A stretch of 48,937 nt of DNA. It comes from an uncultured Gammaproteobacteria bacterium (lineage in GTDB: Bacteria; Patescibacteriota; Patescibacteriia; XYB2-FULL-38-15). The first letter of the stretch is position 1. Each line of letters starts with the position of its first letter. The stretch lies in contig OZ246416.1 in assembly GCA_965231095.1 (NCBI GenBank), positions 1 through 48,937 on the forward strand. Direction: 5' to 3'. Shown piece after piece: positions 3,140-35,200 of the stretch. Under the pieces are notes generated by a model. It was given only the letters and a program-made list of their open reading frames with translations, did not search any database and was not told the origin of the DNA. The translations under genes and the position numbers were made by a program.

Positions 3140-4978
3140 ATGCAAGTTAAAAAAGCGTTAAAGATTTTAGCTGGATTGGCCGTTCTCGCGGCTGGTCTTT
3201 TGTTTGTTCAAATCGCTTTGGCTCAAAATTTTGGGCTAAACGAAGTGGGCAACGAAATTGCGCTGGTTGACGGCGACCCGCGGGTAATTGCCGCGAGAAT
3301 TATAAGAGTGGCGCTTGGATTTTTGGGAATTATCGCGCTTGGTATTGTGCTCTACGGCGGTTTTGTTTGGATGACTTCCGCCGGCAATGAAGAAAAAATC
3401 GCCACAGCCAAGAAAATTTTAACAAATGGGCTGATAGGTTTAGTAATTATTATAATGGCGTTTGGAATTACGCAGTATGTTTTAAATACTTTGATTGGCG
3501 TGCTCTCGGGCGGGGGTGGAGGCGCAGGCGGCGCGAGTGGCCCGCCGGCAGTTGGCCGCTACAGCGGCGCGTTGGGCAACAGCATTATTGAAAGCCATTA
3601 TCCGCCGCGCGGCGGCACGGGCATCGCCAGAAATACGAAAGTGATTATTACCTTTAAAGAGCCGATGGCGCCGGAAACTCTGATTGAAGGTTATGACAAC
3701 CGCGACACGGAAGATCTTTCCGATGACACAGTCGGAGGAGTGGCGGTTACCCCGGCGACAATTTTGCCGATAAAAAGTGAAAATATTAGAATTTATCAAT
3801 CGCTTTTGGGAGAAACCGGCGCGGGCGGCGCGCCAAATTATTTGGAGCCGAACGAAGCAAGAGTCGGCTTTACCACTGATTTGAAAAATTTTACTTTTGA
3901 TCCAACGGAACTTTTAGGAAGTCCCTCGGAAAATATTTGGTATACGGTGGCCTTAAAACCGGGTTTGAAAAAGGTAGACGGTAGCGACGCCTTTGGCGGA
4001 GCGTTTGGCGACGGCTATGCTTGGGATTTTGAAGTGAGCACTTTTGTTGACGTCACGCCGCCAAAAGTGGAAAGCGTAATTCCTGGAGACGCGTCAACTA
4101 ATGCCAGAAATATTTTGGTGCAGGTAAATTTTGATGAAGCCATGGATCCAACGACCGTGGCCGGGAAAACCGCGGATGGTTTTGATAAAATTGAGGTTAC
4201 CGCCGACGGTACGCCGGTTGCCGGTACTTGGGCGATTGGCAATCAATATAAAACTATAGAATTCACCACGGATTTTCGGTGTGGCACAAATTCTTGCGGC
4301 GGCGATGTGTATTGCTTGCCGGCGGATGCAGACATTGATGTTACAGTCAAAGCCGCGCGTCTAGGCACAACTCCGCCAGAAGCGGAAATGCCTTATACTG
4401 GCGCGACTGATGTCGTTGGCAATTCTTTGGATGGCAACGAAAACGGAACAGCCCAAGGCCCGACCACTGATAATTATTCCTGGGATTTTGCGACAAACAA
4501 TACAATTGATTTAATTCCGCCGAGAATTGAAACTCTTCTGCCAGCGGCGAGCGGAAGCGATGTAGCGCTTGATGCGCCGATTGAATTTAGATTTAGTAAA
4601 CCGATGAGTGTGACAAGTTTTTCTTCAGAAAATATTATTTTGGAAGATAACGAACGCGATGCTTGCGCAGTTTGGTTTACTTTAGGCGGCGTGGGGACAG
4701 ACGCTCTTGGCGCGCCGACGCCGCGGGGAGGAACACCAGCTAAACACAAAGCCATAATTTATCATGGAGATTTTATTGAAAGTACTGAGATGCCGACCCC
4801 GGCTCCGACTTGCGCTGACGGCGCGGCGGTTGATGAATCTCTTGTCAGATATTATCCGCGAGCGACGCACAGAATAAAAGATATTTATCAAAATTGTTTC
4901 TATGAGCCAGTCGGCCCGGCCAGAGGAACAAGTTGCACTGCCACTGGCGGCGCGGACTGCAGGTGGCCGGTAGAATAA
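3140..4978 (+). CDS. Surface protein: signal peptide, VirB2/TrbC-like (T4SS) pilin domain, Gly linker, Ig-like (Big_5-type) domains
   Basis: DPRVIAARIIRVALGFLG...YGGFVWMTSAGNEEKIATAKKILTNGLIGLVII two-helix pilin; beta-rich repeats such as DVTPPKVESVIP and LIPPRIETLLP; ATG 3140 preferred over GTG 3116. Confidence 0.75.
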   Translation: MQVKKALKILAGLAVLAAGLLFVQIALAQNFGLNEVGNEIALVDGDPRVIAARIIRVALGFLGIIALGIVLYGGFVWMTSAGNEEKIATAKKILTNGLIGLVIIIMAFGITQYVLNTLIGVLSGGGGGAGGASGPPAVGRYSGALGNSIIESHYPPRGGTGIARNTKVIITFKEPMAPETLIEGYDNRDTEDLSDDTVGGVAVTPATILPIKSENIRIYQSLLGETGAGGAPNYLEPNEARVGFTTDLKNFTFDPTELLGSPSENIWYTVALKPGLKKVDGSDAFGGAFGDGYAWDFEVSTFVDVTPPKVESVIPGDASTNARNILVQVNFDEAMDPTTVAGKTADGFDKIEVTADGTPVAGTWAIGNQYKTIEFTTDFRCGTNSCGGDVYCLPADADIDVTVKAARLGTTPPEAEMPYTGATDVVGNSLDGNENGTAQGPTTDNYSWDFATNNTIDLIPPRIETLLPAASGSDVALDAPIEFRFSKPMSVTSFSSENIILEDNERDACAVWFTLGGVGTDALGAPTPRGGTPAKHKAIIYHGDFIESTEMPTPAPTCADGAAVDESLVRYYPRATHRIKDIYQNCFYEPVGPARGTSCTATGGADCRWPVE

Positions 4979-5002: not shown

Positions 5003-8000
5003 ATGAAACCACACGAGAGAAAAATTTTAAAATTTCTTTTTTCCCTGTTTTTGCTCACGGGCGCGTTTTTGTTTGCGACAACGATTTTTGCTCAAGATTT
5101 TGGCGTGAATGAAGTGGGAAATGAAATTGCTCTGCCGACATCTGATCCGAGAGTGGTCGCGGCGCAAATTGTCCGCGTGGCATTGGGATTTTTGGGAATT
5201 GTGGCGGTGGCGATTGTGATTTATGGCGGTTTTGTTTGGATGACGGCCAGCGGGAATGAAGAGCAAATTAGCAAAGCCAAAAAGATTTTGACCAATGGCG
5301 TGATTGGTTTAGTTATTATTGTAATGGCTTTTGGCATTACCCAGTTTGTTTTAACAAGATTAATGGAAGTGACGGGAATTTCGGGCGGTCCGGGCGGGGG
5401 CGGCGGAGGTGGAGGCGGCGGCGGAGGCGGTTTGCCGTCTGATTCATTTATTGTCCGCGGAATTCAGCCAAATGGTTCTGTGCCGATTAGAAACGTGACC
5501 GTGCGAGTTGTTTTTAATAAAGCCGTAGATTCAACAACCCTGACAGATAATTTTAACGTGAGAAAAACGGCTGACGGAAGTTTAGTGGCCGGAACGGCGA
5601 GCGCTTCGGGAACAGTATTGGAATTTGTCCCCAATGCCGCGTGCCCTGCGCCGAATGGAGACAGAAAATGTTTTGACGGAGATACGGAATTTACCGTGGA
5701 AGTGACAACGAGCTTGCGGAGTACGGACGGAAGAAATTTAATTTGCGGAGGCCTCGCGCCAAATTGTACTGCCAATTTCACAACAGGAAACTTGGTTGAC
5801 GTAACCGGGCCGACGGTGGAGATAACTTATCCTGATCCGGGCGATTCGGTTTCTGCCGATGCTATAGTTTCGATTGAGGCAGAGGCCGCCGACGACGCGG
5901 GAATTTCTTATTTGGAATATTTTTCAAATGGCGGGACGCTCGGCACTGACGCACCGACGGGTCCAACGCCGCTCACTTATTCTTCAATTTTTGATTGGGA
6001 TACAACCGGCGTGACCTTAGGTTCACGGCACACGCTTACGGCAGAAGCTTTTGATATTGATTCAAATAATACTACGTCAGGCGGGGTGGATGTAATCGTT
6101 CGCGCGGCGCATTGTTTTAATGGTAGCCGCGATGCGGATGAAACAGACATTGATTGCGGCGGCGCGGATTGCGGAACCTGCGATGGCGGGTCATGTACTT
6201 CCGGAGCAGATTGCCGGGGTGGGACTTGCGTTGGCGGGGTTTGCCGAACATTACCGACAATTACCGGAGTTTCTCCAAACGACGGGGCAGTGGGAAATTA
6301 TGTGACAATTTTTGGCCAAGGTTTTGGCATCGTGCCCGGACAAGTTTATTTTAATAATGTTTTGGCCGGAGCGCCGGTTTGCCCGGCTTCCACGACTTGG
6401 CAGAATAATCAAATTATTGTAGTGGTTCCGGCCGGCGCGACCGATGGAGCGGTCAAGGTTGTTGTTCCTCCGCCGACAGGCGCGACCGCGGAGGAATATA
6501 CTGATCAAACCGATGATGAGCGCGGGCCGACTCTGCCGAATTTTGATGTTAATGATACAGCGCGGCCGGGAATTTGTTCTATCACGCCGGATTCCGGCGA
6601 ACCACGGAGTGATGTTGTTGTCGCCGGTACGCAATTTGGCGCGACGCAAGGAACAAGCGAAATTATTTTTGGCGGCACGCGAGCCGAGCGCGTCAGTCTT
6701 TGGACCGCCGCGAGCATTGGCGCGGTTGTCCCTCTTATTGCTCCGGCAACTGTTCCGGTGCAGGTTGTAGTTGGCGGACAAAATAGTAATCCAATTAATT
6801 TTCGAGTTGCCGCCACGGCCGATGCTCCAAGAATTTTGAGTTTCACTCCAACGCACGGACCGGTGGGCGAGTATGTGACAATTTTTGGCGCCAATTTTGG
6901 AGATACGACTGGACAAGTATTTTTTAAAGATGCGCTTGGCGCGGATCTTTTGGCTGATGTGAATTTCCCCGCGGCTTGCGGCGCTGATTGGTGGAGAAAT
7001 GATCAAATTATCGTAAAAGTTCCGACCGGCGCGGCGACAGATATTTTAAAAATTACAACCGGAGGCGCCTCGGGCGGCTTGTCTGATGATACAATCGATT
7101 TAACCACTTCAGATTTTACGGTTGATGCCGGCGCGGCCGGTCCGGGAATTTGTAAAATTACGCCGGACAACGGGCCCATTGATTTACCGGTCGTGATTAA
7201 TGGCGAGCGTTTTGGCGCGTCAGCTTTAGTTAATTTTTATCGGGCAACTCCCGCGACCGTTACTCCGACTGATGGCGCGCAAATTTCTACCTCGGTGCCA
7301 GTGGGATCCCAGACTGGTCCGGTTAATGTTACCTCCGGCGCCGTCACGGGCAACAGTGTAAATTTTACAGTTCAAGATTGTCGCGCGGGAGCAACGTGTT
7401 CGTCCGGAGAGCAATGCTGCCGCGATGGTAGTTGTGCGGTTGCTTGCGCCGCCGCCGCGGGGAAGGGATATTATTTTTGGCAATTTTCTACCGGTCAGCT
7501 TCCTGTTTATCCGCAGGTAGTTGAAAGTTGCAGCAATCCGCCGCCGCCTTCTCCGCCCTCGCCCTCGCCCTGGTCCGGACGAGATGGGGGAGAGAGGGTT
7601 TGCGTGAATGCCCTAGTAACAGCGCGGTTCACGACAAAAATAAATCCGGCGTCAGCTGGCAGTGAAAATATTTTAGTTGAAAGTTGTTCTGACCAAACTT
7701 GTGTCACAAGATCCGTGGTTGCCGGAGCAATTAGATTTTTGAGCGCCTCTTCCGCGCAAGATGGTTTTGAATTTACTCCTACGGGAAATTTAGCAAGAAA
7801 TAATTGGTATCAAGTAACTTTAAAAAGTGACGCGGCGCTTGGCACGGGAATAGAAAGTTGTCTTGGCGGCGCGGGCTGTCCGGATGGAGGATTTTTCTTG
7901 GATGGCGACCGAGATGGAGTTGAGGGTGGAGATTATGTTTGGAAATTTAAGACGCGCGACAGCGATGAAACTTGCGCCATTGGTTTAATTGGAGTTTTGC

Positions 8001-13702: not shown

Positions 13703-13774
13703 GTCAAAATCATCTCTCAAAAACTATTTTATTTTTTAAGATATATTTTTGACTTTTGACTTTTGACTTTTGAA
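13703..13774. repeat. Heptamer array (TTTTGAC)x3 plus TTTTGAA with upstream inverted partners
   Basis: Units at 13747-13774; GTCAAAA at 13703 and CTCAAAA at 13716. Confidence 0.8.
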
Positions 13775-13782
13775 TTAAACTT

Positions 13783-14421
13783 ATGTTTGACAAAGAACCC
13801 GAGGACATGTTTGCCGGCGTGGAGCCGACAGGGCAAGAACCGCTGCGGCCGGCTGGCGCGCTTTCGCCGACCGTGCCTGGCATGCCCGGAACCGCCTCTG
13901 CAGTTGGGGCAACTCCGACAGAGGTTGGGGAAGAGGGCGGAGGTCCGGGAAAAAAGAAAATGATTTTGGTTTTGGCGGCCGCGATTTTAGTTTTAATTCT
14001 TGGCGGCGGCGGATTTCTTGTGTGGCGGCAATTTACATCCGCGCCGGAAGCAACTCTTGAAACGCCGGAAGTGAACGCTAATTTACCGGCAGTAAATACT
14101 CCGGTTGAAACCGCGCCGATTGTGAATGAGGCTCCTGCGGAAATTCCTCCGGCAGTTTTGGAAACCGCGCCGGTTATTCCTCCGGTGGGAAGCGTTGATT
14201 CGGATGGGGATGGTCTGACCGACGCGCAAGAGGTGACTCTTGGAACTGACGCGACAAATACCGACACAGATCTGGACGGACTCTCAGATGGCGAAGAAGT
14301 AAATACTTATCTTACCGATCCCTTAAATGCGGATACAGACGGCGATACATATTTGGACGGAGCTGAAGTCGACGCCGGGTATGACCCCAAGGGGCCGGGG
14401 AGATTGTCGGAACAGCCGTAG
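13783..14421 (+). CDS. Membrane-anchored protein with Ca-binding DxDxDG (thrombospondin type-3-like) repeats
   Basis: Single TM, Pro/Ala linker, DSDGDGLTDAQE, DTDLDGLSDGEE, DTDGDTYLDGAE. Confidence 0.75.
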   Translation: MFDKEPEDMFAGVEPTGQEPLRPAGALSPTVPGMPGTASAVGATPTEVGEEGGGPGKKKMILVLAAAILVLILGGGGFLVWRQFTSAPEATLETPEVNANLPAVNTPVETAPIVNEAPAEIPPAVLETAPVIPPVGSVDSDGDGLTDAQEVTLGTDATNTDTDLDGLSDGEEVNTYLTDPLNADTDGDTYLDGAEVDAGYDPKGPGRLSEQP

Positions 14422-14466
14422 TAGACTAAAGAACAGAGAAACTAAGAAACAAAAGAACGGGAAACC
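14421..14466 (+). repeat. Octamer array (AGAAACTA-like) upstream of four-helix-bundle gene
   Basis: gtagacta aagaacag agaaacta agaaacaa aagaacgg gaaacc. Confidence 0.75.
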
Positions 14467-14847
14467 ATGAATACGATATTCAGATTTAGACAATTCCCTG
14501 TTTATAACGACGCGAGGCATTTTCGTAAAGAATTAAAACAATTAAGTAGAATTAAATTTCCCAAAGAAGAACAGTTTTGTTTAATTTCTCAGTTGTGGAG
14601 AGCGCTAGATTCTATAATATTGAATATAGCCGAAGGATCTGATAGATATTCTGATAAAGATTTTAGCCATTTTCTTAATAACGCGCTTACATCTTTAAAT
14701 GAAGTGGTTGCTTGTCTGGATTGTGCGTTTGATGGTGGTTATATAAATATTGAGGAGTTGAATAAATATTTAAGTCAAGCCGAAAATTTAGTAAGGCAGC
14801 TAAAGGCTTTTATTTCCAAAGTGCGAAAAGATAATAGAAGTTTCTAA
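14467..14847 (+). CDS. Four-helix-bundle protein (23S rRNA IVS protein-like family)
   Basis: FRQFPVYNDA, FPKEEQFCLISQLWRALDSIILNIAEGS, FLNNALTSLNEVVACL: family pattern; 126 aa. Confidence 0.88.
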   Translation: MNTIFRFRQFPVYNDARHFRKELKQLSRIKFPKEEQFCLISQLWRALDSIILNIAEGSDRYSDKDFSHFLNNALTSLNEVVACLDCAFDGGYINIEELNKYLSQAENLVRQLKAFISKVRKDNRSF

Positions 14848-14877
14848 GTTTCTTTGTTTCTAAGTTTCTAAGTTTTA
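14838..14877 (-). repeat. Octamer array (AAGTTTCT)n downstream of four-helix-bundle gene, inverted relative to upstream array
   Basis: aagtttct aagtttct ttgtttct aagtttct aagtttta. Confidence 0.8.
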
Positions 14878-14883
14878 AAAATT

Positions 14884-15861
14884 ATGCCAAACGGAGAGCA
14901 AAAACCAATAAATATCGCCGAAGAACCGCCGGTGGAAATTAAGGCCATGCCCGAGCAGTTTTATTTTAAGAAAGTGAATGTGCCAAAGGAGGGCAAGAGT
15001 GGAGGATCAAAAACAACCCTGCTTATCGCGGTTGGGGCGGTGGTGATTGTTCTTTTGGCAATTGCGGCATATCTTTTTACTCAAAGTTTGAAACCGAAAA
15101 CCGCCGTGACGCCGCCGGCAAATACCAATACGGCGGTGAACGCGCCGGTAAATGCGTCGCCGGTTAATGTTCCCGTTAACGCTCCGGCTAATGTCCCGGC
15201 CGCTCCGATTTGCGGCAATGGTGTTTGTGAATCCGGAGAAACTTCCATCACGTGCCTTGCCGATTGTCCCGCGCCCATTCCCGAACCAGAGGTTCCTCTG
15301 GTTTCGGCAATTGATACGGATCAAGACGGCCTGACGGACGTGGAGGAGTTATTGTTTAATACCGATCCGAGCAAATCTGACACTGACGGAGACAGCTATC
15401 CTGATACTTTAGAACTTATAAATTTATACAACCCGACCGGGCTTGCTCCGCAAAAAATTGAGGAAACAAACTTGGTAAAAATTTATAATAATCAGATTTA
15501 CAATTACTCCATTTTTTATCCGTCACTTTGGATTATGAGAGCGCTTGATGAAACAAGCCAAGAGGTTATGTTCACGTCGGCCACAGGAGAAATTTTTGAA
15601 GTGATTGTTGATGAAAATCCCAATCGTCTGCCGCTTTTGGAATGGTATTCATCTTTGTCGCCGGAAACAAATCTCTCCGAACTCTCCGACGTCACGACAA
15701 AAGGCGGCCTGCTCGGGAAAAAGAGTCCGGACGGGCTCACGGCTTATTTTTCCTCGAGAGATAAAATTTATGTGATTAGTTACGGGGTGGGAAATAAAAC
15801 GGAATTAAATTATGAGAGTACTTTTGAAATGATTTTAAGAAGTTTTAGGATTGGTTTGTAA
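14884..15861 (+). CDS. Membrane-anchored protein: TM, one Cys repeat, DxDxDG Ca-binding repeats, probable PsbP-like C-terminal domain
   Basis: TM near aa 46-66; CGNGVCESGE; DTDQDGLTDVEE; YNYSIFYPSLW start of C-terminal domain. Confidence 0.65.
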   Translation: MPNGEQKPINIAEEPPVEIKAMPEQFYFKKVNVPKEGKSGGSKTTLLIAVGAVVIVLLAIAAYLFTQSLKPKTAVTPPANTNTAVNAPVNASPVNVPVNAPANVPAAPICGNGVCESGETSITCLADCPAPIPEPEVPLVSAIDTDQDGLTDVEELLFNTDPSKSDTDGDSYPDTLELINLYNPTGLAPQKIEETNLVKIYNNQIYNYSIFYPSLWIMRALDETSQEVMFTSATGEIFEVIVDENPNRLPLLEWYSSLSPETNLSELSDVTTKGGLLGKKSPDGLTAYFSSRDKIYVISYGVGNKTELNYESTFEMILRSFRIGL

Positions 15862-15878: not shown

Positions 15879-16313
15879 ATGATTAAAATAGAAATAAATC
15901 AGAAAGTTGGCAAAAAAATCAAAGAAGCGTGGCTGAATAAAATTGTTGAACAAACCCTCGGGGCGGTAAAAATAAAAAATGCGTCCGTATCGGTCGCGAT
16001 CGTGGGCGATTTGGAAATGAAAAAATTGAATAAAGAGTGGCGAGGAAAAAATTGCGTGACCGATGTTTTGAGTTTTGATTATAAGTTTCAAGTTCCAAGT
16101 TCTAAGTTTGAGATCGAAGGAGAGATAGTTATTTCTCATCCGCAGGCAGCGCGGCAAGCGAAGGAAGGCGGGCACAACGTGGATGAAGAGATAAAAATGT
16201 TGTTGGTTCACGGCGCGTTGCATTTGGCCGGGTATGATCACGAGAAGAGCGAGAGGGAGGCGAAGAAGATGGAAGAGTTACAAAATAAAATTTTTAAAAT
16301 ATGTTTAGCCTAA
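15879..16313 (+). CDS. ybeY: rRNA maturation endoribonuclease YbeY
   Basis: LNKEWRGK..TDVLSF and HGALHLAGYDH metal motif. Confidence 0.95.
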   Translation: MIKIEINQKVGKKIKEAWLNKIVEQTLGAVKIKNASVSVAIVGDLEMKKLNKEWRGKNCVTDVLSFDYKFQVPSSKFEIEGEIVISHPQAARQAKEGGHNVDEEIKMLLVHGALHLAGYDHEKSEREAKKMEELQNKIFKICLA

Positions 16314-17994: not shown

Positions 17995-17995
17995 T

Positions 17996-18065
17996 AGATT
18001 TAAGGTTTAAGATTTAAGGTTCCAATATAAAAATCTTAAATCTGAAATCTTTAATCTAAAATCTA
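17996..18065. repeat. Ten phased heptamers forming an inverted array between ftsA and ftsZ
   Basis: agattta aggttta agattta aggttcc aatataa aaatctt aaatctg aaatctt taatcta aaatcta. Confidence 0.85.
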
Positions 18066-18069
18066 TATT

Positions 18070-19290: not shown

Positions 19291-19357
19291 ATTAAAATTT
19301 AGTATAGATAATACGATAGCAAGATAGCGAGAGCAGATTTGAGAAGGAGGAATTAGG

Positions 19358-19438
19358 ATGGACTTGAAAATTTATTTAGAGTTTCTCGAATCAATGTTCT
19401 TAAAGGTTATCTTGTTATTTTATTCGCCTAATTTATGA
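19358..19438 (+). CDS. Candidate 26-aa leader peptide overlapping the nrdD start (not in ORF track)
   Basis: AAGGAGG 7 nt before ATG 19358; MDLKIYLEFLESMFLKVILLFYSPNL; stop TGA overlaps the nrdD ATG (ATGA). Confidence 0.35.
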   Translation: MDLKIYLEFLESMFLKVILLFYSPNL

Positions 19439-21732: not shown

Positions 21733-22485
21733 ATGAGAAATAAACTGATAATGGAAAATTTTATGATGATTGGCGGTCTGCAAAAATTGACTCTTATTGA
21801 TTATCCCGGCAAAATTGCTTGCACGGTTTTTACGGTTGGCTGTAATTTTCGCTGTCATTTTTGCCATAACCCGGAACTGATTAATCCGGCTAAATTTAAG
21901 TTATCGGAAATTATTGAAGAAAAAGTTTTTTTTGATTTTTTAAATTCGCGACACGGACTTTTAGACGGTGTTTGTATTACAGGCGGGGAGCCGACGCTTT
22001 ACCCCGATTTGCCGGAATTTATAAAAAAAATTAAGGAGCTGGGGTTTTTAGTAAAACTGGATACCAACGGAACAAATCCGGAAATGATCGGAGTGCTTGT
22101 GGCGGAAAAATTAATTGATTATGTTGCGATGGACATTAAAACAAAACTCAAAACGCAAAACTCAAAATTCAAAACTTACGATGAAGTTGTGGGAGTAAAA
22201 GTGGATTTATCAAATATTGAAAAGAGCATTAAAATCATTATGCAAAGTGGAATTGATTATGAATTTCGGACGACGATGGTGCCAAAGCTGCATACCGAGG
22301 AAGATATCATGCAAATTGCCGAAGAGCTCCGCGGCGCGAAAAAATATTATTTGCAGCAATTTAGATCCGGAGGGAAAATTTTTGATCCGGAATTCTATGA
22401 TGTAAAACCGTACCCAATAGAATTTTTAAAAGATTTACGTGAAAAAATAAAAGGAAATTTTGGAATTTGTGAGATTAGAGATTAG
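21733..22485 (+). CDS. nrdG: Anaerobic RNR activating enzyme (radical SAM); true start probably 21763 or 21766
   Basis: LIDYPGKIACTVFTVGCNFRCHFCHN (CxxxCxxC), ITGGEPT, KLDTNG, YEFRTT. Confidence 0.92.
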   Translation: MRNKLIMENFMMIGGLQKLTLIDYPGKIACTVFTVGCNFRCHFCHNPELINPAKFKLSEIIEEKVFFDFLNSRHGLLDGVCITGGEPTLYPDLPEFIKKIKELGFLVKLDTNGTNPEMIGVLVAEKLIDYVAMDIKTKLKTQNSKFKTYDEVVGVKVDLSNIEKSIKIIMQSGIDYEFRTTMVPKLHTEEDIMQIAEELRGAKKYYLQQFRSGGKIFDPEFYDVKPYPIEFLKDLREKIKGNFGICEIRD

Positions 22486-22529: not shown

Positions 22530-22844
22530 ATGACTCCGCTTGAGAGAAGAGTTTTAATATTGATAAAGAAAATCCCGCGAGGGAAAGTCTCAACTTACGG
22601 CGAAATTGCGAGGATTTTAAAGACCGGGCCGCGGGCGGTAGGAAACGCGCTTCATAAAAATCCTCATCTTATAAAAATTCCTTGCCATCGGGTGGTAAAA
22701 TCAGATGGAAGTTTAGGAGGGTATGTTGGCGGGGGAGAAAAGAAGATGGGGTTGCTTAAAAAAGAGGGGATATTGTTCAAAAAAAATAAAATAATAAATT
22801 TTGTACAAGTAATTTATAAATTAAACAAAAAAGTAAATAATTAA
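22530..22844 (+). CDS. MGMT family O6-alkylguanine DNA alkyltransferase (DNA-binding domain only)
   Basis: IPRGKVSTYGEIA, PRAVGNAL, active-site PCHRV. Confidence 0.88.
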   Translation: MTPLERRVLILIKKIPRGKVSTYGEIARILKTGPRAVGNALHKNPHLIKIPCHRVVKSDGSLGGYVGGGEKKMGLLKKEGILFKKNKIINFVQVIYKLNKKVNN

Positions 22845-22961
22845 TTCCCAATTTCCAATTACTAATTTCCAATAAATGTTCAATGTCCAATTTTAATTTT
22901 AGACATTTGACATGGGGATTTTGAAATTTATTTAGATATTAGAAATTAGGAATTAGGAATT
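22843..22961. repeat. Nested inverted heptamer arrays
   Basis: aattccc aatttcc aattact aatttcc aata aatgttc aatgtcc ... agatatt agaaatt aggaatt aggaatt. Confidence 0.8.
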
Positions 22962-26333: not shown

Positions 26334-26342
26334 AAAAATAAA

Positions 26343-26429
26343 TTATTCAGCTACTCGATTACCTAATTACAGATTATAAAAAATTGATTGGGTAATTTAT
26401 GGTAACTAAGTAATTAAGTAATTTTGTAA
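26343..26429. repeat. Degenerate inverted octamer arrays
   Basis: Left ttacctaa/ttacagat units versus right ttgggtaa, ctaagtaa, ttaagtaa, ttttgtaa running into the MFS ATG. Confidence 0.6.
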
Positions 26430-28490: not shown

Positions 28491-29249
28491 ATGGAAGGAA
28501 TAAAAAATGAGCCAGGAAAAGAGCGCCAAATCAAAATTGGAGTGATAATTTTGATAATTTTGTGCGTGGTTGTTGTTTTGGGAACAATTTGGCAATATCC
28601 AAAATTTTTACGCGCTCCGTTTGCTCAATATGGCCAAGACATCGGGCTGTGGAAGTCGCAATTTGAACAGGAGGCGGAAGAATTGGCGGCAATGAAAGAA
28701 GCGGATACTGATAATGATGGATTGAATGATTATGATGAAACTTATCTTTATGGAACAAGTCCCTATTTGGCCGATTCCGATTCAGACGGATTTTCAGATA
28801 AAGAAGAAATAGCTTCGGGGAACGATCCAAATTGCGCCGCCGGGGAAATTTGTTCGAAATTGGGAGAAGAGGGCGCGGCAAAAATTGAGCCGACAGTCGC
28901 GCCTCCCGCCGAGGAAGAGCTTGGCGGACTTTTGGCGGGTACGGCTACGGCCGAGGAAGTGCGCGATGCTCTCCGAGGAGCCGGAGTTGACGACGCAACG
29001 CTCGCGAGCCTTGATGATCAAACTCTTTTGGAACTTTATAATGAAACCTTAAAAGAGGCCGGAGGAGGGGGAGTGGCGGGCGGCGGCACCAATACAAATT
29101 CTCCATTGCCAACCAATGTTAATGCGAGTGAGATGACGCCGGAGGAGCTTAGAAAACTTTTGCGCCAAGCCGGAGTGGATGAGGCAACCTTAAACAGTGT
29201 TGATGACGCGACGTTGATGAAGATTTTTGAAGAGACGGTGAATAAATAA
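28491..29249 (+). CDS. Membrane-anchored protein with DxDxDG Ca-binding repeats and a duplicated acidic helical motif
   Basis: TM; DTDNDGLNDYDE, DSDSDGFSDKEE; two ...LRxAGVDxATLxSxDDxTL... units. Confidence 0.7.
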   Translation: MEGIKNEPGKERQIKIGVIILIILCVVVVLGTIWQYPKFLRAPFAQYGQDIGLWKSQFEQEAEELAAMKEADTDNDGLNDYDETYLYGTSPYLADSDSDGFSDKEEIASGNDPNCAAGEICSKLGEEGAAKIEPTVAPPAEEELGGLLAGTATAEEVRDALRGAGVDDATLASLDDQTLLELYNETLKEAGGGGVAGGGTNTNSPLPTNVNASEMTPEELRKLLRQAGVDEATLNSVDDATLMKIFEETVNK

Positions 29250-29286
29250 TTTTCAATTAACAATTTTCAGTCAATTTTCAATTTTA
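29248..29286 (+). repeat. Heptamer array with a 4-nt interruption
   Basis: aattttc aattaac aattttc agtc aattttc aatttta. Confidence 0.75.
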
Positions 29287-29290
29287 TAAG

Positions 29291-32200
29291 ATGTTGACAA
29301 ATAATCTTAGAAAACCAAAACGGACTATTTGCACAATTGTTTTGCTTTGTTTTGTTTTGACTCAAGTTATTTCCGGCGTCTTTTTGTACGCTCGTCCGGC
29401 CACGGCGCAGCTCGTTGTCTCTGATCCGGTGACCGGCGCCCAGACAACGGTTAAAAATATAAAAGATTTTTTAAAAATTTTAGTGGTGAACGCCGGGACC
29501 ATGGCCTTGATTAATGCCGCGTCGCGCTTCATGCAAAAAATCTCCTATGATCTGGCCGTGAGTTTGGCTTCGGGCGGGAGTGGGCAAATGCCGCTTTTTT
29601 CCACAGAAGGTTGGGGGGATTATTTGGCCAGTGCCGGGTTGGACGCGGCCGGAGAATTTATCGGGAGTTTTGGCGATATGGTTGGCGTTAATTTTTGCGC
29701 GCCGCCAAATCCCAGAGTTGGATTAGCTTTGCAATTACAATTATCTCAAACTTACGCGGAAGGATTGCCGCCGCCAACTTGCGAATGGTCTTCAATCCAA
29801 TCAAATTGGGAGTCGTTTATCGCCGAAGTTCAGACGGAAGATTTCCTGCGCGAGGCGGCTTCGCAATTTCAAATCGGCTATGGCGCGGGAACTGATCTTG
29901 ATCTGGCCATCAGCACTTATGTCGGGGCTTTTAACGCGGAACGAAGCGCTTCAGATACCGCGGCCTTAACGAGAGAAGAAGGACAAGGATTTTTGCCGGC
30001 TTCGGAATTAATCAGCGGAGACATCAAAACGCCGTCTGAAGTTATCAGGCAAACTTCTCAAATCCAAACCGAAGGGCCGGTTGAAGCGGAGCAATTAAAG
30101 TGGAGCCTTTCCGGCCAGGCGCTTTCCGCCGGAGCCCAAGGAATTTTGACCATGATGGCTTCAACTTTTGTCAGTACTCTTCTTTCCAAAACAATGGAAA
30201 GAATTTTCAGCAAAGGCATGTACTCGCTGGCTGATTTATTTCCCGAAGGAGAAGACGCGACCTCGGAAGAGGGGACAGCTTGGGGCGGGCGCCGCGCCGC
30301 GGAATTGGCTTTTGCCGATTTACTTGTGCCGCAAATTAAAGAAAGTGGCGCTTATGATATTTTATCCGACTTTATTGTTTGCCCGGATAAATTTAAAGGG
30401 ACAAACAATTGCGTGATGGACGGACGGTTTGAAGCGGCAGTTCGGCAAGCGCAAACTGGAGCGCCGCTTACGGTGGCTGCGGCGATTGAAGGAAAATATT
30501 TGGATGAAAAGTGGGCGTTGATTCCGCCGTCTGATTTAGCCGCGAACCAAGATCCGCTTTGTTACACAAGAGGTTTTTGTTATAGCAATTTAGTAAAACT
30601 CCGCAAAGCGAGAATCATTTCCATTGGTTGGGAAATCGCGGCGCAAATCTCTCCCACAACAAGTTATGTCACCTTGAAAGAAGTGGTTGACCGTTTTTAT
30701 GATTGTAATGCCGCGGGCGAGGCCGATAATGAGCATCTCTATTGCCACTTGATTGACCCGAACTGGATCCTGAAAGCGCCGGCCGAGCAATGCCGGGCGC
30801 GAGTTTACGGACCGCTCTTACAAACTACGGAAAATAGTTTTCGCCAAGAAACTTGTGTTGATTCGCCGACCTGTCTTGCCGAAGACGACCAAGGAAATTG
30901 CGAAGGCGGTTGGGGGTATTGCACCAGAGAAAAAAATATCTGGCGGTTAGACGGAGATCAATGCGACGCGCAGTATGATACTTGCAAACTCTTGCGGCGA
31001 AGCGACGGGCAAAATGTCGCTTATGTGACAAATACGGTTGATTACGGCCCGCCTTGCAATGCCGACGATATCGGCTGCCGCTGGTATTCCGACCGGCAAT
31101 CAAAAGTCGGAGATGATTGGCTTTGGCAAGACGCGCTTACCGGTTCGGGAACCGCCGCCCGCCGGACTGATAGAATTTTCTTTAATAAAAACATCGCCCA
31201 GTGCGACGAGCCGGGTTGTAATGAATTTTTACGGACAACTTCGGACACAAAATTAAATTTAGTCACCAATAGCAGTTTTGAAAATTTTATTGACAATCCC
31301 GCTTACGCGACCGACACTTTCGAAGATTGGCCAAATAACGGTGAAGCATCAAACGACACGTATTTCGGCCGAACGGCTCTGCGTTTTGTTGGACTATTTT
31401 CCCGAGACATCACCTTGGAAGAGCCCAAAGCCGGCCGGACTTTTGTTTTATCTTTTTATGCCAAAAATGTCAGCGATACGGAAACTTGTAATGGAATAGT
31501 ATCTTTTGAGGGACTGGCAGAAGATTTGCCGGCGGGTTCTGCTTATGAGCGGGTTACCATAGAAAAAACCGCCGCGGGCGTTGGCCGAACTTTGAATTTC
31601 CGTTTTGGCGGAGCGGGGAATTGTTTAATTGATGCCGTGCAGCTTGAAGAAGGAACTTTTGCTTCGCAATACCATGAGGGTTGGGGAAGAACCGGCGAAG
31701 CGTTATATTTAAAAACCGCGCCGGATTATTATTCTTGTTATGATTACACTTCGGTCGGCGCTTTGGATAAAACAAACGACGCCCAGCAGTGCGGAAATTT
31801 TGCCAAGGCCTGCGAAGAAAAAGATGTGGGCTGCGAAGAGTATCGTCCGACAAACGGCGATCCGTCGGTGCCGGGCGTGGCCAATTATCCGGACGATTAT
31901 TGTCCGGCCGAGTGCGTTGGTTATCAAACTTTTAAACAAGTGGCGACTGATTTTGAACAAGATAAATTTCCGGTTTATTTTATTCCAACCACCGGCCGAA
32001 CTTGCAACGCCGCGGACGCGGGCTGCGATCAATTTACCAGTTTGGAAACTGAAGCCGTAGCCAATTTCAGTTATGTTCGCCGTTGCGAAAAACCGGGCGC
32101 GACAGGAGCGGCTTTCTACACTTGGGAAGGAAGTGATACGGCCGGTTATCAGATAAAAACTTGGAATTTAAAAATGGCGCAAAGTTCCGTGGTGCCAACT

Positions 32201-35200
32201 ACGCCGGACGGTTCCGACCCAGCTGGCGGCAGACCGCCATGTACTGCGTTAATGGCTGATGGTTTGTCTTGTGACGATACTTCGCTTGTCGGCCTTTGCA
32301 CCAAAGCCGACACACTTATCAACCCCGACTGCCGTGAATTTTACGACGCGGCCGGTTTAAAACATTATCGCCTGTATTCCAAGACGATTGTGGTCTCTGA
32401 CGATTGCCATCCGTACCGCAAAACTCTTTCTACCGCCGGCGATTGCGGAGCTTCCGGCGGAAGATGGGACGCGGTAAAAAGTGAGTGCGCTTACAATGTT
32501 TATCTGCCGGAATCCAGAAGCTGCAGCAACGAGGCCGTCGGCTGCCGGGCTTATCGCGGAAACGCCGGAGCAAATACCGCCGTGGTTTTGAATGATAATT
32601 TTGATGATTCATTGATCGCCAATTGGGACGAAGCAGATACCCCGACCATAAGTTCTGAATCACTGGTAGTCGGCGGAAAATCTTTGTCTTTTAACGCCGG
32701 AGAAACAATAGACAAAAGTCTTTCCACTTCAATTCGCCAGGGCGGCCTTTATACTCTATCTTTTTGGGCCAAGGGTGCGAGCCGTCTTGATATAAAATTT
32801 TTGGGTGCCGATTCTAACGATAAAGTATTCAGCTCGGCAACCAAAAGCCCGACCAACCTTTCTTTTGACTGGCGATATTTTTCGCTCGGTCCGGTTTATG
32901 TTGACTGGGGCGTCGCCGGCGGAGGAGAAACTTTACGAATTTCCGCGGTGGGCGGAGGAACGCCGGCTTACATTGATAATATTATTTTGCGTGAAGTTCA
33001 ATCATATATTTATGTAGTGAAAAATTCTTGGACTACGCCAATTTCTTGCGACCGGTCTTTTGCGATTGATACTTCAATCACCGAGGCCGCGGCTTGTGCG
33101 ACTTCCGGCGGTTCTTGGAGTGCCGACCGCGGAGAGTGTGTTCTTTCCGCGCTTTTGCCGCAAGCCCAGCTTGGATGCGCGAGTTATTTTGACCGCGCGA
33201 ACGGCCTGCATTATCTAAAATCTTTCTCGCGGCTTTGCTCGCCGGACGTGGCCGGTTGCGCGAAATTGTTGAAGACAAATAATAATGCCTCAACTGCCGA
33301 GGAAACTTACAATACAGAAAACGACAGCGATCCGTCGCTTTCAGACGAAGAAAGATTGTCGGACAACGTGACGATCCCGGCTGATTCTTTCTCTTATATT
33401 GTGGTGGATGACGCGTATGAATGCGCGGCGCAAAATAAAGGTTGCGCCGAATTTGGTTCGCCGACGCTTGATGCCGCAGGAAATGCGAAAGTTGATGCCG
33501 ATGGCAAACCGCAATACAGTACGGTAAATCTTCTGGCCAATCCAACGCTCTATAATTCCGCGACCGGCCGAATTCTCTGCCAAGTCGGATTCCTGGCCTG
33601 CGAAGAATATACCACAACCGACGGCGGAAAATTATATTTTAAAAATCCGGAGCCGCGACTTTGCGAATGGAAAGATAATGTAAATCTTAGCGGGCAAAAT
33701 GTTTCCGGATGGTTTAAAAAACAAGAAAAAGCATCTGATCCACTTTTGCCTTGCGACCCGGCAAATTTCAATGGCGGATATTATAATATTTGGAAAAATG
33801 GCGACACGAAATGTAATTTGCCATATGTCTGCCAAGACGCCGCGGGTTGCGCTTGTACAGTTGGAACGGCCGGCGCGACCGGTGCGCCCGGCACAACTTG
33901 CACGGTTTCTTACAATAAACGTTCTTGCCCGTACTCCGGCTGGGTTGGGGAGTGCATTCCGCAAGCTGACCAATGCACAAAATTTGTTGATCCCGCGGAC
34001 ACGACAGAAGATCCTCTGGGCGCGGCATATTATTACATTAATAATGACAAAATAAGTTCAGGAAATTGCAATGGCATGGCTTCGCAAAAAAGCGGATGTG
34101 TGTTGTTTAATGATACAAGCAATCCGCAGTTGGATAAAAATGCCAACGCGACGTATTGGGCTTCGGAAGCAAAAGTCAGCGATCCGGGTGGGCTCGTAGC
34201 ACCAATTGATTGTCGGCCGGACGACGCGAGTTGCGGTAAAAAATGTATTAAAACGGTGGCTGGCGGAGGTTATTCATATTATCGTTATTGTCGAGACCGA
34301 AATGATTGCGATATTACGGAACGTGCCGACGATGATCCAGCGGCTCGTGACCAATGCGTGGTAGTTTTGTCGCGATTGCGTAACGACTCCAATCGTCTTG
34401 TCCAAGTTCGCCGCGACCGCGTCTGCGGAGAATGGCTGACGTGCTCGGGCACCAACCATACTTTTGATCCGCAAACAGGCCGAGAAAAAGTTTTGTGCGA
34501 ACAAATTGATGTTTGCAATCAATATGCAAAAGTTGGCCAGGCGACAGCGCAATGCACAAATATTCTTGCCCCAGAAGAAGTTGAAACCAACCGAAAACTT
34601 TTGAGCAAAGAATTATATGTTTCTCGCGATACGACTTTCAAGGGAATGGATTACTCCGGAGATTCTATTTATAACCAGTATCAAGCGCAAAATTTACGTA
34701 GCGTAAACGTTGGTACAGTTGAAAGCCCGGTTCCTGCTTTGGCTTTTATTGAGGACAGATGTTTTGACGCCGCCGGTCTGCTAGATGACTGTGGAACGCG
34801 TCCGGACGGTTTTTGTGAGAGCGACGTAAATGATTCCCCGTGTGGAGATAATGGTAAATGTTTTAATCATATTTGCGTTACAAATTTTCGCGGAGATCCT
34901 TTTGTTCCGGGTGCTGTAAAAATTTTTGACGCGACAAACAGAGAAAATATTTCTTGCCGCGCTTATCCCGAGCAGAGCTCGCCATTCCCCAATAGCGTGG
35001 TTAAAAACTGGACACCCTTGAGTAAAAAACCCGGTTTCACCGGAGCAAATATCTGTGAAAACAGAGAAGCTTGTGATTGTTCTTATTTGAAAGCGAGTTA
35101 CGGCAGCGGCGCAGTGACAAAATATTTTGATGAAGAAAAGGATCCCTTGCCTTCAGTTTGTGTTGGTGGTAAAGATGCCGGGAAAACTTGCACAGATCTT

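Follow-up and report, generated by a model that had tools for sequence, protein, structure and literature searches.

To our knowledge, the nature and origin of the intervening sequences (IVSs) of ribosomal RNAs have been open questions since about 1990. The S23p proteins (PF05635) have thousands of members and solved structures, and we know of no function for them outside diversity-generating retroelements (DGRs). In the 23S rRNA of Coxiella burnetii, the IVS has a 28-bp terminal stem, which RNase III cuts in vitro, with the S23p open reading frame (ORF) in its loop, and two to four tandem GACAGAT heptamers, whose copy number varies between strains, precede the ATG (PMC4990558). ORFs of the 23S_rRNA_IVP type have also been reported from insertions in the 16S and 23S rRNAs of the candidate phyla radiation (CPR) (PMC11270868). 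The family occurs inside cas operons (PMC3936711), is counted among CRISPR-associated domains (PMC10910872) and is the commonest Pfam family near the reverse transcriptases (RTs) of DGRs (PMC10053308). Here we analyse a PF05635 gene in positions 1 to 48,937 of contig OZ246416.1, from an uncultured bacterium assigned to the Patescibacteriota; this stretch is referred to as the window. We propose, with moderate confidence, that the segment 14422-14883, which contains the gene, is an IVS-type, horizontally moving hairpin cassette that resides in an operon spacer, with the PF05635 gene in the loop and mirror arms of about five units. Neither the flanking arrays nor a cassette outside rRNA was described in the literature searched, the coverage of which was not exhaustive.

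The units of the 5′ arm of the cassette read, in order, TAAAGAAC, AGAGAAAC, TAAGAAAC, AAAAGAAC and GGGAAACC, and those of the 3′ arm read AAGTTTCT, AAGTTTCT, TTGTTTCT, AAGTTTCT and AAGTTTTA. The 3′ arm overlaps the last three codons of the ORF, stop included. Its array was called by Tandem Repeats Finder (TRF) with period 8 (AAGTTTCT in 4.8 copies at 14838-14875) and has a lag-8 identity of 0.81. The 5′ array is more degenerate, with a lag-8 identity of 0.59 and no TRF call. The first-pass annotation of this DNA had described a gene bracketed by period-8 arrays in opposite orientation, with 14437-14452 (AGAAACTAAGAAACAA) matching the reverse complement of 14854-14869 at 15 of 16 nucleotides. 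Both statements are correct, and a repeat search extends the complementary arms to 27 nt (14432-14458 and 14848-14874, 81% complementary). A chance origin of the arm complementarity is excluded. The inverted-repeat (IR) score of the cassette, 14, was matched by none of 5000 flank shuffles and by one of 5000 random window positions of the same geometry. The 5′ arm alone folds into no structure of its own and has no pairing partner among the nine other period-7/8 arrays of the window. In the minimum-free-energy (MFE) fold of 14415-14885, a long-range stem of the two arms closes the ORF.

The cassette resembles rRNA IVSs in that its ORF lies in the loop of a terminal-inverted-repeat stem. As in Coxiella, variable-copy tandem repeats stand directly before the ATG, with five octamers in the window and 12.5 copies in the closest named relative, a Candidatus Falkowbacteria metagenome-assembled genome (locus L001). 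The cassette is not inserted in a 23S or 16S rRNA helix; it sits between two protein-coding genes. There is no rRNA anywhere in the window, and Rfam contains no family that matches the cassette arms or the gene-less hairpins described below. A consensus scan, which provides weak evidence only, found neither a promoter nor a terminator inside the cassette. With no promoter to itself and a position between two genes that run in the same direction, the cassette probably depends on read-through for its transcription. The reading of arrays with TTGACA-type arms as tandem -35 promoters was rejected, because the arrays run to the ATG, so that there is no space for a -10 box and a leader; they also have a mirror copy downstream.

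The encoded protein belongs to PF05635 (Pfam 23S_rRNA_IVP; E 2.4e-27, 95.7 bits against a cut-off of 33.8) and to TIGR02436 (NCBIfam 'four helix bundle protein'; E 8.5e-26, 90.3 bits against a cut-off of 24). The AlphaFold2 model of the monomer (pLDDT 90) predicts helices at residues 11-30, 33-59, 63-89 and 95-124. Its best Foldseek matches are 2GSC (TM 0.83-0.93) and 2RLD (TM 0.76-0.87), the PF05635 entries of the Protein Data Bank (PDB), which have five chains each and thus represent pentameric crystal forms; phmmer gave an E value of 4e-9 for the window protein against 2GSC. The matches that follow are to Avd (4DWL, TM 0.75/0.88; 8UB7 chain E), with TM values of about 0.7-0.88; a structural kinship with DGR Avd had been mentioned in the first-pass annotation. 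Some relatives of the window protein also match the Pfam family bAvd. An exact-protein lookup returned no record, and no phage copies were detected when viral contigs were scanned with the alignment of the family. The window protein is 85% identical to its homologue in L001, and the syntenic neighbours are only 51-75% identical. The proportions of nonsynonymous (pN) and synonymous (pS) differences between the two genes are 0.09 and 0.77, the latter saturated, and their ratio of 0.12 indicates strong purifying selection on the protein. Across phyla, the protein is about 70-80% identical. In 55 of 56 loci, the PF05635 gene is poorer in GC than the genes beside it (mean difference -7.9 points), yet its GC content tracks that of the host (r = 0.85). 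The window gene is functional and seems to have been acquired.

The arrays recur in other genomes. A scan of one genome per species with a homologue alignment provided 59 loci, which are designated by L-numbers, as are metagenome loci recovered with the 325-aa downstream neighbour (p325) as a probe for filled and empty sites. Almost every homologue has a purine-rich period-7/8 array that reaches the ATG and the reverse complement of that array starting from the stop codon, with units that vary from locus to locus. Flanks with an IR score of at least 12 were found at 30 of 57 PF05635 homologues and at 7 of 380 other ORFs of the same loci, an enrichment of about 29-fold. Several of the seven ORFs are immediate neighbours of PF05635 genes, and the top-scoring 'other' ORFs of a first pass proved to be additional PF05635 copies. 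Flank complementarity of at least 10 characterises 55 of 57 PF05635 genes from the 59 loci, which represent CPR, Omnitrophota, Saganbacteria/WOR-1, Peregrinibacteria, Bacteroidota and Verrucomicrobiota. The layout is kept at 57-85% protein identity in CPR lineages, Omnitrophota, WOR-1/Saganbacteria and Peregrinibacteria, and at 33-41% identity in Bacteroidota and one Verrucomicrobium. TRF called period-7/8 arrays on both sides of the gene in 44 of 66 loci, with equal periods on the two sides in 43 of the 44. The number of units per arm has a median of 4.3-4.4 and ranges from 2 to 16; a clean copy-number rule of five units was therefore rejected. Pairs of inverted arrays with the same unit are bimodal in spacing, with gene-less hairpins at 1-122 nt and a second class at 345-485 nt, 21 of the 23 members of which enclose a PF05635 ORF. 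The sole intermediate spacing, 188 nt, belongs to a decayed cassette. One gene outside PF05635 (L001 6196-7191) is likewise enclosed by same-unit arrays.

Some loci have variant layouts. Long direct arrays flank both sides of L018 2798-3666, where 22 copies of a 16-mer precede the inverted array downstream, and direct units of the GTCTTAAG type are present on both sides of L057 3950-4588. L102, L105, L108, L048, L052 and L059 have the arrangement a-a′-gene-a′, in which a full small hairpin precedes the ATG and an extra pyrimidine arm follows the stop codon, so that two alternative pairings are possible for the purine arm. L002 contains near-identical PF05635 cassettes at 3995-4378 and 6815-7198, 2.8 kb apart, both with a TGgTATAAT-like box upstream of the array and similar gene starts downstream; the pair looks like a segmental duplication that included the cassette.

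The junction occupied by the window cassette differs between relatives. The gene order giant surface protein - (272 aa) - p212 - p325 - ybeY - dagK - ftsA - ftsZ is conserved in L001 and the metagenome loci, and orthologues of the 212-aa gene (p212) lie directly upstream of the p325 orthologue in L001 and L060-L069. The p212/p325 junction contains an FH-A cassette in the window and a plain spacer of 39-44 nt in L062, L063, L064 and L066. The two TSP3-repeat genes are thus near-contiguous in four relatives, in keeping with the earlier description of the gene as interrupting a surface-protein cluster. The junction carries a gene-less hairpin in L061, the closest relative by FtsA (96%), with a AAAGTTAA/TTAACTTT unit, in L067 with another unit, and in L001 with a GTATTTA/TAAATAC unit. 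The units of these three hairpins are unlike the window arms, which match the L001 cassette located elsewhere. L069 has another PF05635 gene (FH-B) at the junction, with the arms AGATTAA x5 and AATCTTA x5; the FH-B protein matches PF05635 with an E value of 1e-28 and is 26% identical to the window protein. In L060, the cassette is of the L069 type; its arms are intact, but about 158 nt have been deleted from within the gene. In L110, the junction is occupied by the second subfamily (FH-B), and a third PF05635 cassette lies one junction upstream. One junction has been taken independently by two subfamilies. In L110, the two different cassettes at adjacent junctions (869-1267 and 2001-2360) give the order 272 aa, FH, p212, FH, p325. 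The L069 gene apparently lacks an ATG at the start of its homologues (L069 5374-5410, ATT AAA GAC GTG..); it may begin at the GTG or be decaying like that of L060.

Cassettes occupy three junctions of the syntenic block, namely giant|272 in L001, 272|p212 in L110, and p212|p325. The L001 cassette, which encodes the closest homologue of the window protein, is shifted upstream by two junctions and separates the giant protein from the 272-aa gene. The DNA homology of the window and L001 cassettes (79%) covers window 14432-14881, from the upstream array through the end of the downstream array. Because this similarity spans both arrays at different junctions, the gene and its arms constitute one unit that changes place. 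Comparison of filled and empty junctions revealed no target-site duplication, and the spacer is replaced whole.

The arm motif follows the protein subfamily, and arms and protein co-diversify. The window-like subfamily has GAAAC, AGAAC or AAAAC with period 8, a sister clade has TTGACA or TAACA with period 7, and the second subfamily has AGATTNA with period 7 in five unrelated contexts; the Bacteroidota have TAGAC, AAGAC or GAATCAGG. The repeat units consist of a constant core and two to three variable positions. The window and L001 agree at every position of a 37-nt portion of the 3′ arm, although their synonymous sites are saturated, and the probability of this identity would be about 4e-8 if the positions evolved as synonymous third positions. 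Selection for pairing alone would permit compensatory drift, and the arms are therefore probably recognised in a sequence-specific manner. The encoded protein is the obvious candidate for this recognition, given that the crystal forms of family members are pentameric and that Avd belongs to a ribonucleoprotein (RNP) as a subunit.

The cassettes reside in ordinary operons. In 36 of 47 cases, the PF05635 gene shares its orientation with the genes on both sides, and the median gaps of 53 and 41 nt are essentially just the arms. The neighbours of 73 homologues span 102 Pfam families and include ribosomal proteins, tRNA synthetases, RuvC, ATP synthase, ABC transporters and type IV pilus genes; RT is absent from the top families. 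In the window, the neighbours within about 5 kb are surface proteins, YbeY, DAGK, FtsA and FtsZ, and the gene is not located beside a DGR RT with template and variable repeats. Genes of type IV pilus or type II secretion systems recur next to cassettes in the 73 loci (T2SSF 7, T2SSE 4, MshEN 3, N_methyl 3), and several cassettes, including those of the window, L001 and L102, adjoin giant surface proteins.

The window also contains at least five gene-less hairpins, each with its own unit (Table 1).

Table 1 Positions of the cassette, its neighbours and the gene-less hairpins in the window
Feature	Position	Strand	Description
Whole cassette	14422-14883	+	Takes up all of the spacer from the stop of the 212-aa TSP3-repeat gene to the start of the 325-aa gene
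5′ arm	14427-14466	+	Five degenerate octamers with GAAC/GAAAC ends; last unit abuts the ATG
PF05635/TIGR02436 four-helix-bundle ORF	14467-14847	+	126 aa, Avd-like fold
3′ arm	14838-14877	+	Five octamers, reverse complement of the 5′ arm
Upstream neighbour, outside the cassette	13783-14421	+	212-aa membrane-anchored TSP3-repeat protein (Pfam TSP3_bac, E 6e-13)
Downstream neighbour, outside the cassette	14884-15861	+	325-aa TSP3-repeat protein
Gene-less hairpin, period 7	13703-13773	+	GTCAAAA.. / TTTTGAC x3.9; between the giant surface protein and the 212-aa gene; TRF; fold z -5.2
Gene-less inverted-heptamer hairpin, ftsA|ftsZ	17995-18069	+	AGATTTA.. / AAATCTT..; -21.4 kcal/mol, z -6.0
Long hairpin after ftsZ	19300-19434	+	Arms GATAGCAAGATAGCGAGAGCAGA / ..GGTTATCTTGTTATT..; loop of ~70 nt; -36.2 kcal/mol, z -3.5
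Gene-less inverted heptamers	22843-22961	+	AATTTCC x4.4 / TTAGAAA-GGAATTA x4.3; 58-nt loop; TRF; z -2.6; same-unit inverted pair
Gene-less hairpin, period-8 arms	26341-26423	+	..TTACCTAATTAC.. / GTAATTAA x2.8; TRF; z -2.9

The presence of inverted arrays without a gene elsewhere in the window had been noted in the first-pass annotation and is confirmed; the fold z values of the five hairpins in Table 1 range from -2.6 to -6.0. Markov controls contained 0-2 strong period-7/8 arrays, compared with nine in the window. Over 455 kb of loci, periods 7 and 8 are the prevailing ones among tandem repeats, with 220 and 115 TRF rows, respectively, and unit sharing amounts to 142/376 within a locus against 1157/13798 between loci. 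A gene-less hairpin with the unit of the local PF05635 cassette is present in L014, L023, L027, L042 and L044. The ftsA|ftsZ spacer always contains an inverted-heptamer hairpin, with the unit AGATTTA in the window (17995-18069), AGATTAT in L061 (8218-8300) and TTGACAA in L065 (3046-3143). The units at this spacer turn over fast, because genomes with about 96% identical FtsA carry different ones. Compared with the arms of L069, L110, L111 and L113, the window hairpin has the arm unit type and the 3′ end (..atct(t)atattATGCCA) of the second subfamily. In L113, a second-subfamily (FH-B) cassette (2001-2363) is located directly upstream of ftsZ, where the window has the gene-less hairpin of the AGATT-type unit. 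Because of the shared units, the likeness of the ftsA|ftsZ hairpin and the intermediate in L060, the gene-less hairpins fit decayed or non-autonomous relatives of the cassettes. They may also have originated independently by slippage.

Additional short-period sequences were observed in the window. The hairpin at 19300-19434 includes a TRF array of period 8 at 19315-19332, and its loop contains a GGAGG box and an ATG mini-ORF that is out of frame with the next gene. In-frame CAAAACT heptamers (x5) are present at 22142-22176 inside the radical-SAM gene 21733-22485, and short-period arrays are therefore not limited to spacers. The ybeY-like gene 15879-16313 contains an in-frame period-7 array (AAGTTCC x3.7, 16083-16108) whose product is a variable loop; at the matching place, the orthologue of L001 contains GATTCCA x5, while the loops of the L060-L065 orthologues are unrelated and non-repetitive. 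A direct-only array of about six AATTTTC heptamers (29248-29285) closely precedes the second giant gene (29291-37552); it lacks an inverted counterpart in its vicinity and is not predicted to form a structure. The window opens, at 1-58, within a tRNA gene, of which only the 3′ part is included.

Based on these comparisons, a mechanism can be proposed for the cassette. The arms would pair in the transcript into a stem of about 30 bp and bring the start and stop codons together, as the complementarity and the MFE fold suggest. By analogy with the Coxiella 23S IVS, RNase III may cut the stem, which would free the ORF RNA and separate the flanking cistrons. The subfamily-specific motif and the conservation beyond neutral expectation point to sequence-specific recognition of the arms, which would most simply be performed by the encoded pentameric Avd-like protein. 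Cassettes would reach new junctions and be exchanged, and internal deletions would turn decaying ones into gene-less hairpins. Presence and absence, the use of different sites and one decay intermediate were observed directly. Spread may proceed by recombination between same-unit arrays, in which case gene-less hairpins could serve as landing pads.

Several observations weigh against the proposal of a horizontally moving hairpin cassette. The fold of 14415-14885 as a whole is unexceptional (z -1.24). Arm mismatches are of the G:U and A:C types in a ratio of 79:70 in cassettes and 14:7 in gene-less hairpins; the equal frequencies provide no sense-strand RNA signature, and arm pairing could equally occur at the DNA level. 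The gene-less hairpins of the window lack the GAAAC unit of the resident cassette, and L018 and L057 have direct arrays as well as inverted ones. The loci were found mostly one per genome, with two in a few (L002, L014, L052 and L110), and the cassette is therefore unlike a proliferating transposon. The cassette has neither a target-site duplication nor a recombinase, transposase or RT nearby, so that the word 'mobile' refers to comparative patterns only, and some of these patterns could stem from allelic replacement through homologous recombination in the flanking genes. The Coxiella S23p protein is apparently not made in vivo, which makes the function of the protein uncertain in at least some members.

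An alternative that we consider unlikely is that the gene is a resident, non-mobile one with an autoregulatory repeat operator. The pentamer would bind about five units on its own mRNA or DNA, as TRAP does, the mirror array would act as an anti-operator or competitor, and ancient vertical inheritance together with loss would explain the scattered distribution. Such an operator would account for the specificity of the arm motif to the protein subfamily, for the 37-nt 3′ arm that is identical in the window and L001 despite synonymous saturation, for the constant unit core with two to three variable positions and a median of 4.3-4.4 units per arm, for the pentameric crystal forms of 2GSC and 2RLD, and for the strong purifying selection on the protein. 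However, a resident gene is difficult to reconcile with the occupation of three junctions of one syntenic block in close relatives, a single junction that hosts two subfamilies only 26% identical, bare spacers in several relatives, 70-75% protein identity between phyla, and a GC content systematically below that of the host. Binding of the repeats by the protein is compatible with, and not opposed to, the arm-recognition step of the mechanism proposed for the moving cassette.

It is quite unlikely that the cassette moves at the DNA level, with the arms functioning as terminal inverted repeats (TIRs) or attC-like folded sites for a transposase or recombinase encoded elsewhere and the protein as cargo or accessory. 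The spacer is replaced and not interrupted, without a target-site duplication, even though presence/absence polymorphism and the repeated use of one junction would suit such an element. Arm families are multi-copy per region (142/376 within against 1157/13798 between loci), but the arms differ between cassette families, and therefore one enzyme cannot recognise all of them. TIR transposons and miniature inverted-repeat transposable elements (MITEs) are characterised by target-site duplication and a family-wide terminal sequence, whereas the arm units differ from cassette to cassette. The window has no recombinase within about 5 kb of the cassette. An integron cassette would have a single attC at its 3′ side and an integrase with attI; here, arms are located on both sides of the ORF, the annotated neighbours include no integrase, and the cargo is essentially always PF05635. 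The lack of an RNA-strand signature in the arm mismatches is the remaining point in favour of a DNA-level cassette.

We regard as very improbable, and largely refuted by the enrichment, cargo-class and arm-motif results, that the arrays are a generic feature, slippage-grown AT-rich spacer hairpins that serve as processing or terminator signals, with a PF05635 gene between two of them by chance. Period-7/8 arrays do dominate the 455 kb of loci, many spacers of housekeeping genes have gene-less hairpins with locus-specific units, the ftsA|ftsZ hairpin is constant while its units differ at 96% FtsA identity, and the gene L001 6196-7191 also lies within same-unit arrays. Against these stand the roughly 29-fold enrichment at PF05635 genes, the 21 of 23 PF05635 cargoes in the 345-485-nt class, the pairing of the window arms with each other and with no other window array, the transfer of arms together with the gene to other junctions, and the recurrence of the layout in Bacteroidota, Verrucomicrobiota and the Coxiella rRNA IVS. 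A retro-mobile RNA, in which the RNase III-excised stem-loop with its Avd-like protein would be reverse-transcribed by an RT encoded elsewhere and reintegrated at spacers or rRNA helices, is hardly credible. The window protein does resemble in fold the subunit Avd, which binds the RT in DGR RNPs (4DWL and 8UB7 chain E, TM about 0.7-0.88), no Pfam family is commoner than PF05635 near DGR RTs (PMC10053308) and IVS RNAs are excised as discrete molecules, but the idea is purely analogical, and no RT, template or variable repeat, A-to-N mutation pattern, poly-A or other hallmark of retro-insertion was found near the examined cassettes.

The horizontally moving hairpin cassette thus remains our preferred explanation. 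The first-pass annotation had proposed an unrecognised element in which the protein and short-period arrays spread together. The joint spread is supported, since the window and L001 cassettes share both arms at different junctions and the motif follows the subfamily. The novelty holds in part: the rRNA-resident IVS form has been published (PMC4990558), whereas we found no description of the arrays or the cassette outside rRNA. The two comparisons suggested at that time also gave positive results, as arrays with an IR score of at least 12 accompany PF05635 genes far more often than other genes (30/57 against 7/380), and empty sites exist both as bare spacers (L062, L063, L064 and L066) and as gene-less hairpins (L061, L067 and L001). 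The notion that gene-less arrays are empty sites or footprints is favoured by the deleted cassette with intact arms in L060.

If the cassette is correctly interpreted, the unit of an ORF within a repeat stem is present in ordinary operons of many phyla, and the IVS would be one face of a general element and not an rRNA oddity, because filled, empty, decayed and re-occupied alleles coexist with arm motifs that track the subfamily. The cassettes may explain the abundant tandem-repeat hairpins in the spacers of CPR and Omnitrophota. Functional assignments of PF05635 by guilt of association, for example as CRISPR-associated, may reflect insertion and not function. More tentatively, we speculate that PF05635 proteins and short-period inverted arrays constitute a widespread and hitherto unrecognised class of hairpin elements, in which the pentamer binds about five cognate repeats of 7-8 nt, the coding elements are autonomous, the gene-less ones are non-autonomous or decayed, and rRNA IVSs are the subset that landed in rRNA helices. 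Such a class, if real, would explain the association of PF05635 with cas operons and other clusters as insertions.

TRAP-type proteins form ring oligomers and bind arrays of short RNA repeats, in which a conserved core alternates with variable spacers and which are placed shortly before a start codon. Their likeness to the window cassette is a mechanistic analogy only. The fold is unrelated, the unit of the cassettes is 7-8 nt long in about five copies, and binding by PF05635 proteins is putative. Correia elements (Neisseria miniature insertion sequences, NEMIS), enterobacterial repetitive intergenic consensus (ERIC) sequences, and repetitive extragenic palindromes and their mosaic elements (REP/BIME) are short inverted-repeat elements of operon spacers. 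Co-transcribed with their hosts' genes, they fold into hairpins of considerable length and change how the mRNA is processed, and they show polymorphism from strain to strain. Correia/NEMIS are RNase III substrates, and MITE-like families have one genome-wide consensus with TIRs and target duplications. The gene-less hairpins of the window resemble these repeats and differ from them in that each has its own 7/8-nt unit and that a coding version exists. Integron attC cassettes share with the window cassette a small promoterless ORF, an imperfect inverted repeat recognised by structure, and exchangeability at a site. They have attC on one side of the ORF, need an integrase and attI, and carry diverse cargo, whereas the window cassette has flanking arms, no integrase nearby and near-always a PF05635 gene. 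Avd (PDB 4DWL, 8UB7) is likewise a four-helix bundle, from a family of small basic ring-forming proteins that bind nucleic acid or RT. It differs from the window protein in sequence (about 10% identity), the window gene has no adjacent RT, template or variable repeat, and inverted arrays are not a feature of DGRs.

The closest relatives of the cassette are the 23S rRNA IVSs with an S23p ORF of Leptospira, Coxiella and others (PMC4990558). Both have a PF05635 protein in the loop of a terminal stem of about 28-30 bp and short tandem units of variable copy number before the ATG, heptamers in Coxiella and octamers in the window. Both lack a promoter of their own and lie inside a host transcript, and IVSs are regarded as selfish or horizontally acquired. 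The IVS is located in an rRNA helix and the window cassette in the spacer of a protein-coding operon, where both arms are clear tandem arrays and many gene-less hairpins of similar design coexist with it. Cleavage by RNase III is proven for the IVS and would apply to the window cassette by analogy. The Coxiella ORF is decaying, whereas strong purifying selection acts on the window protein.

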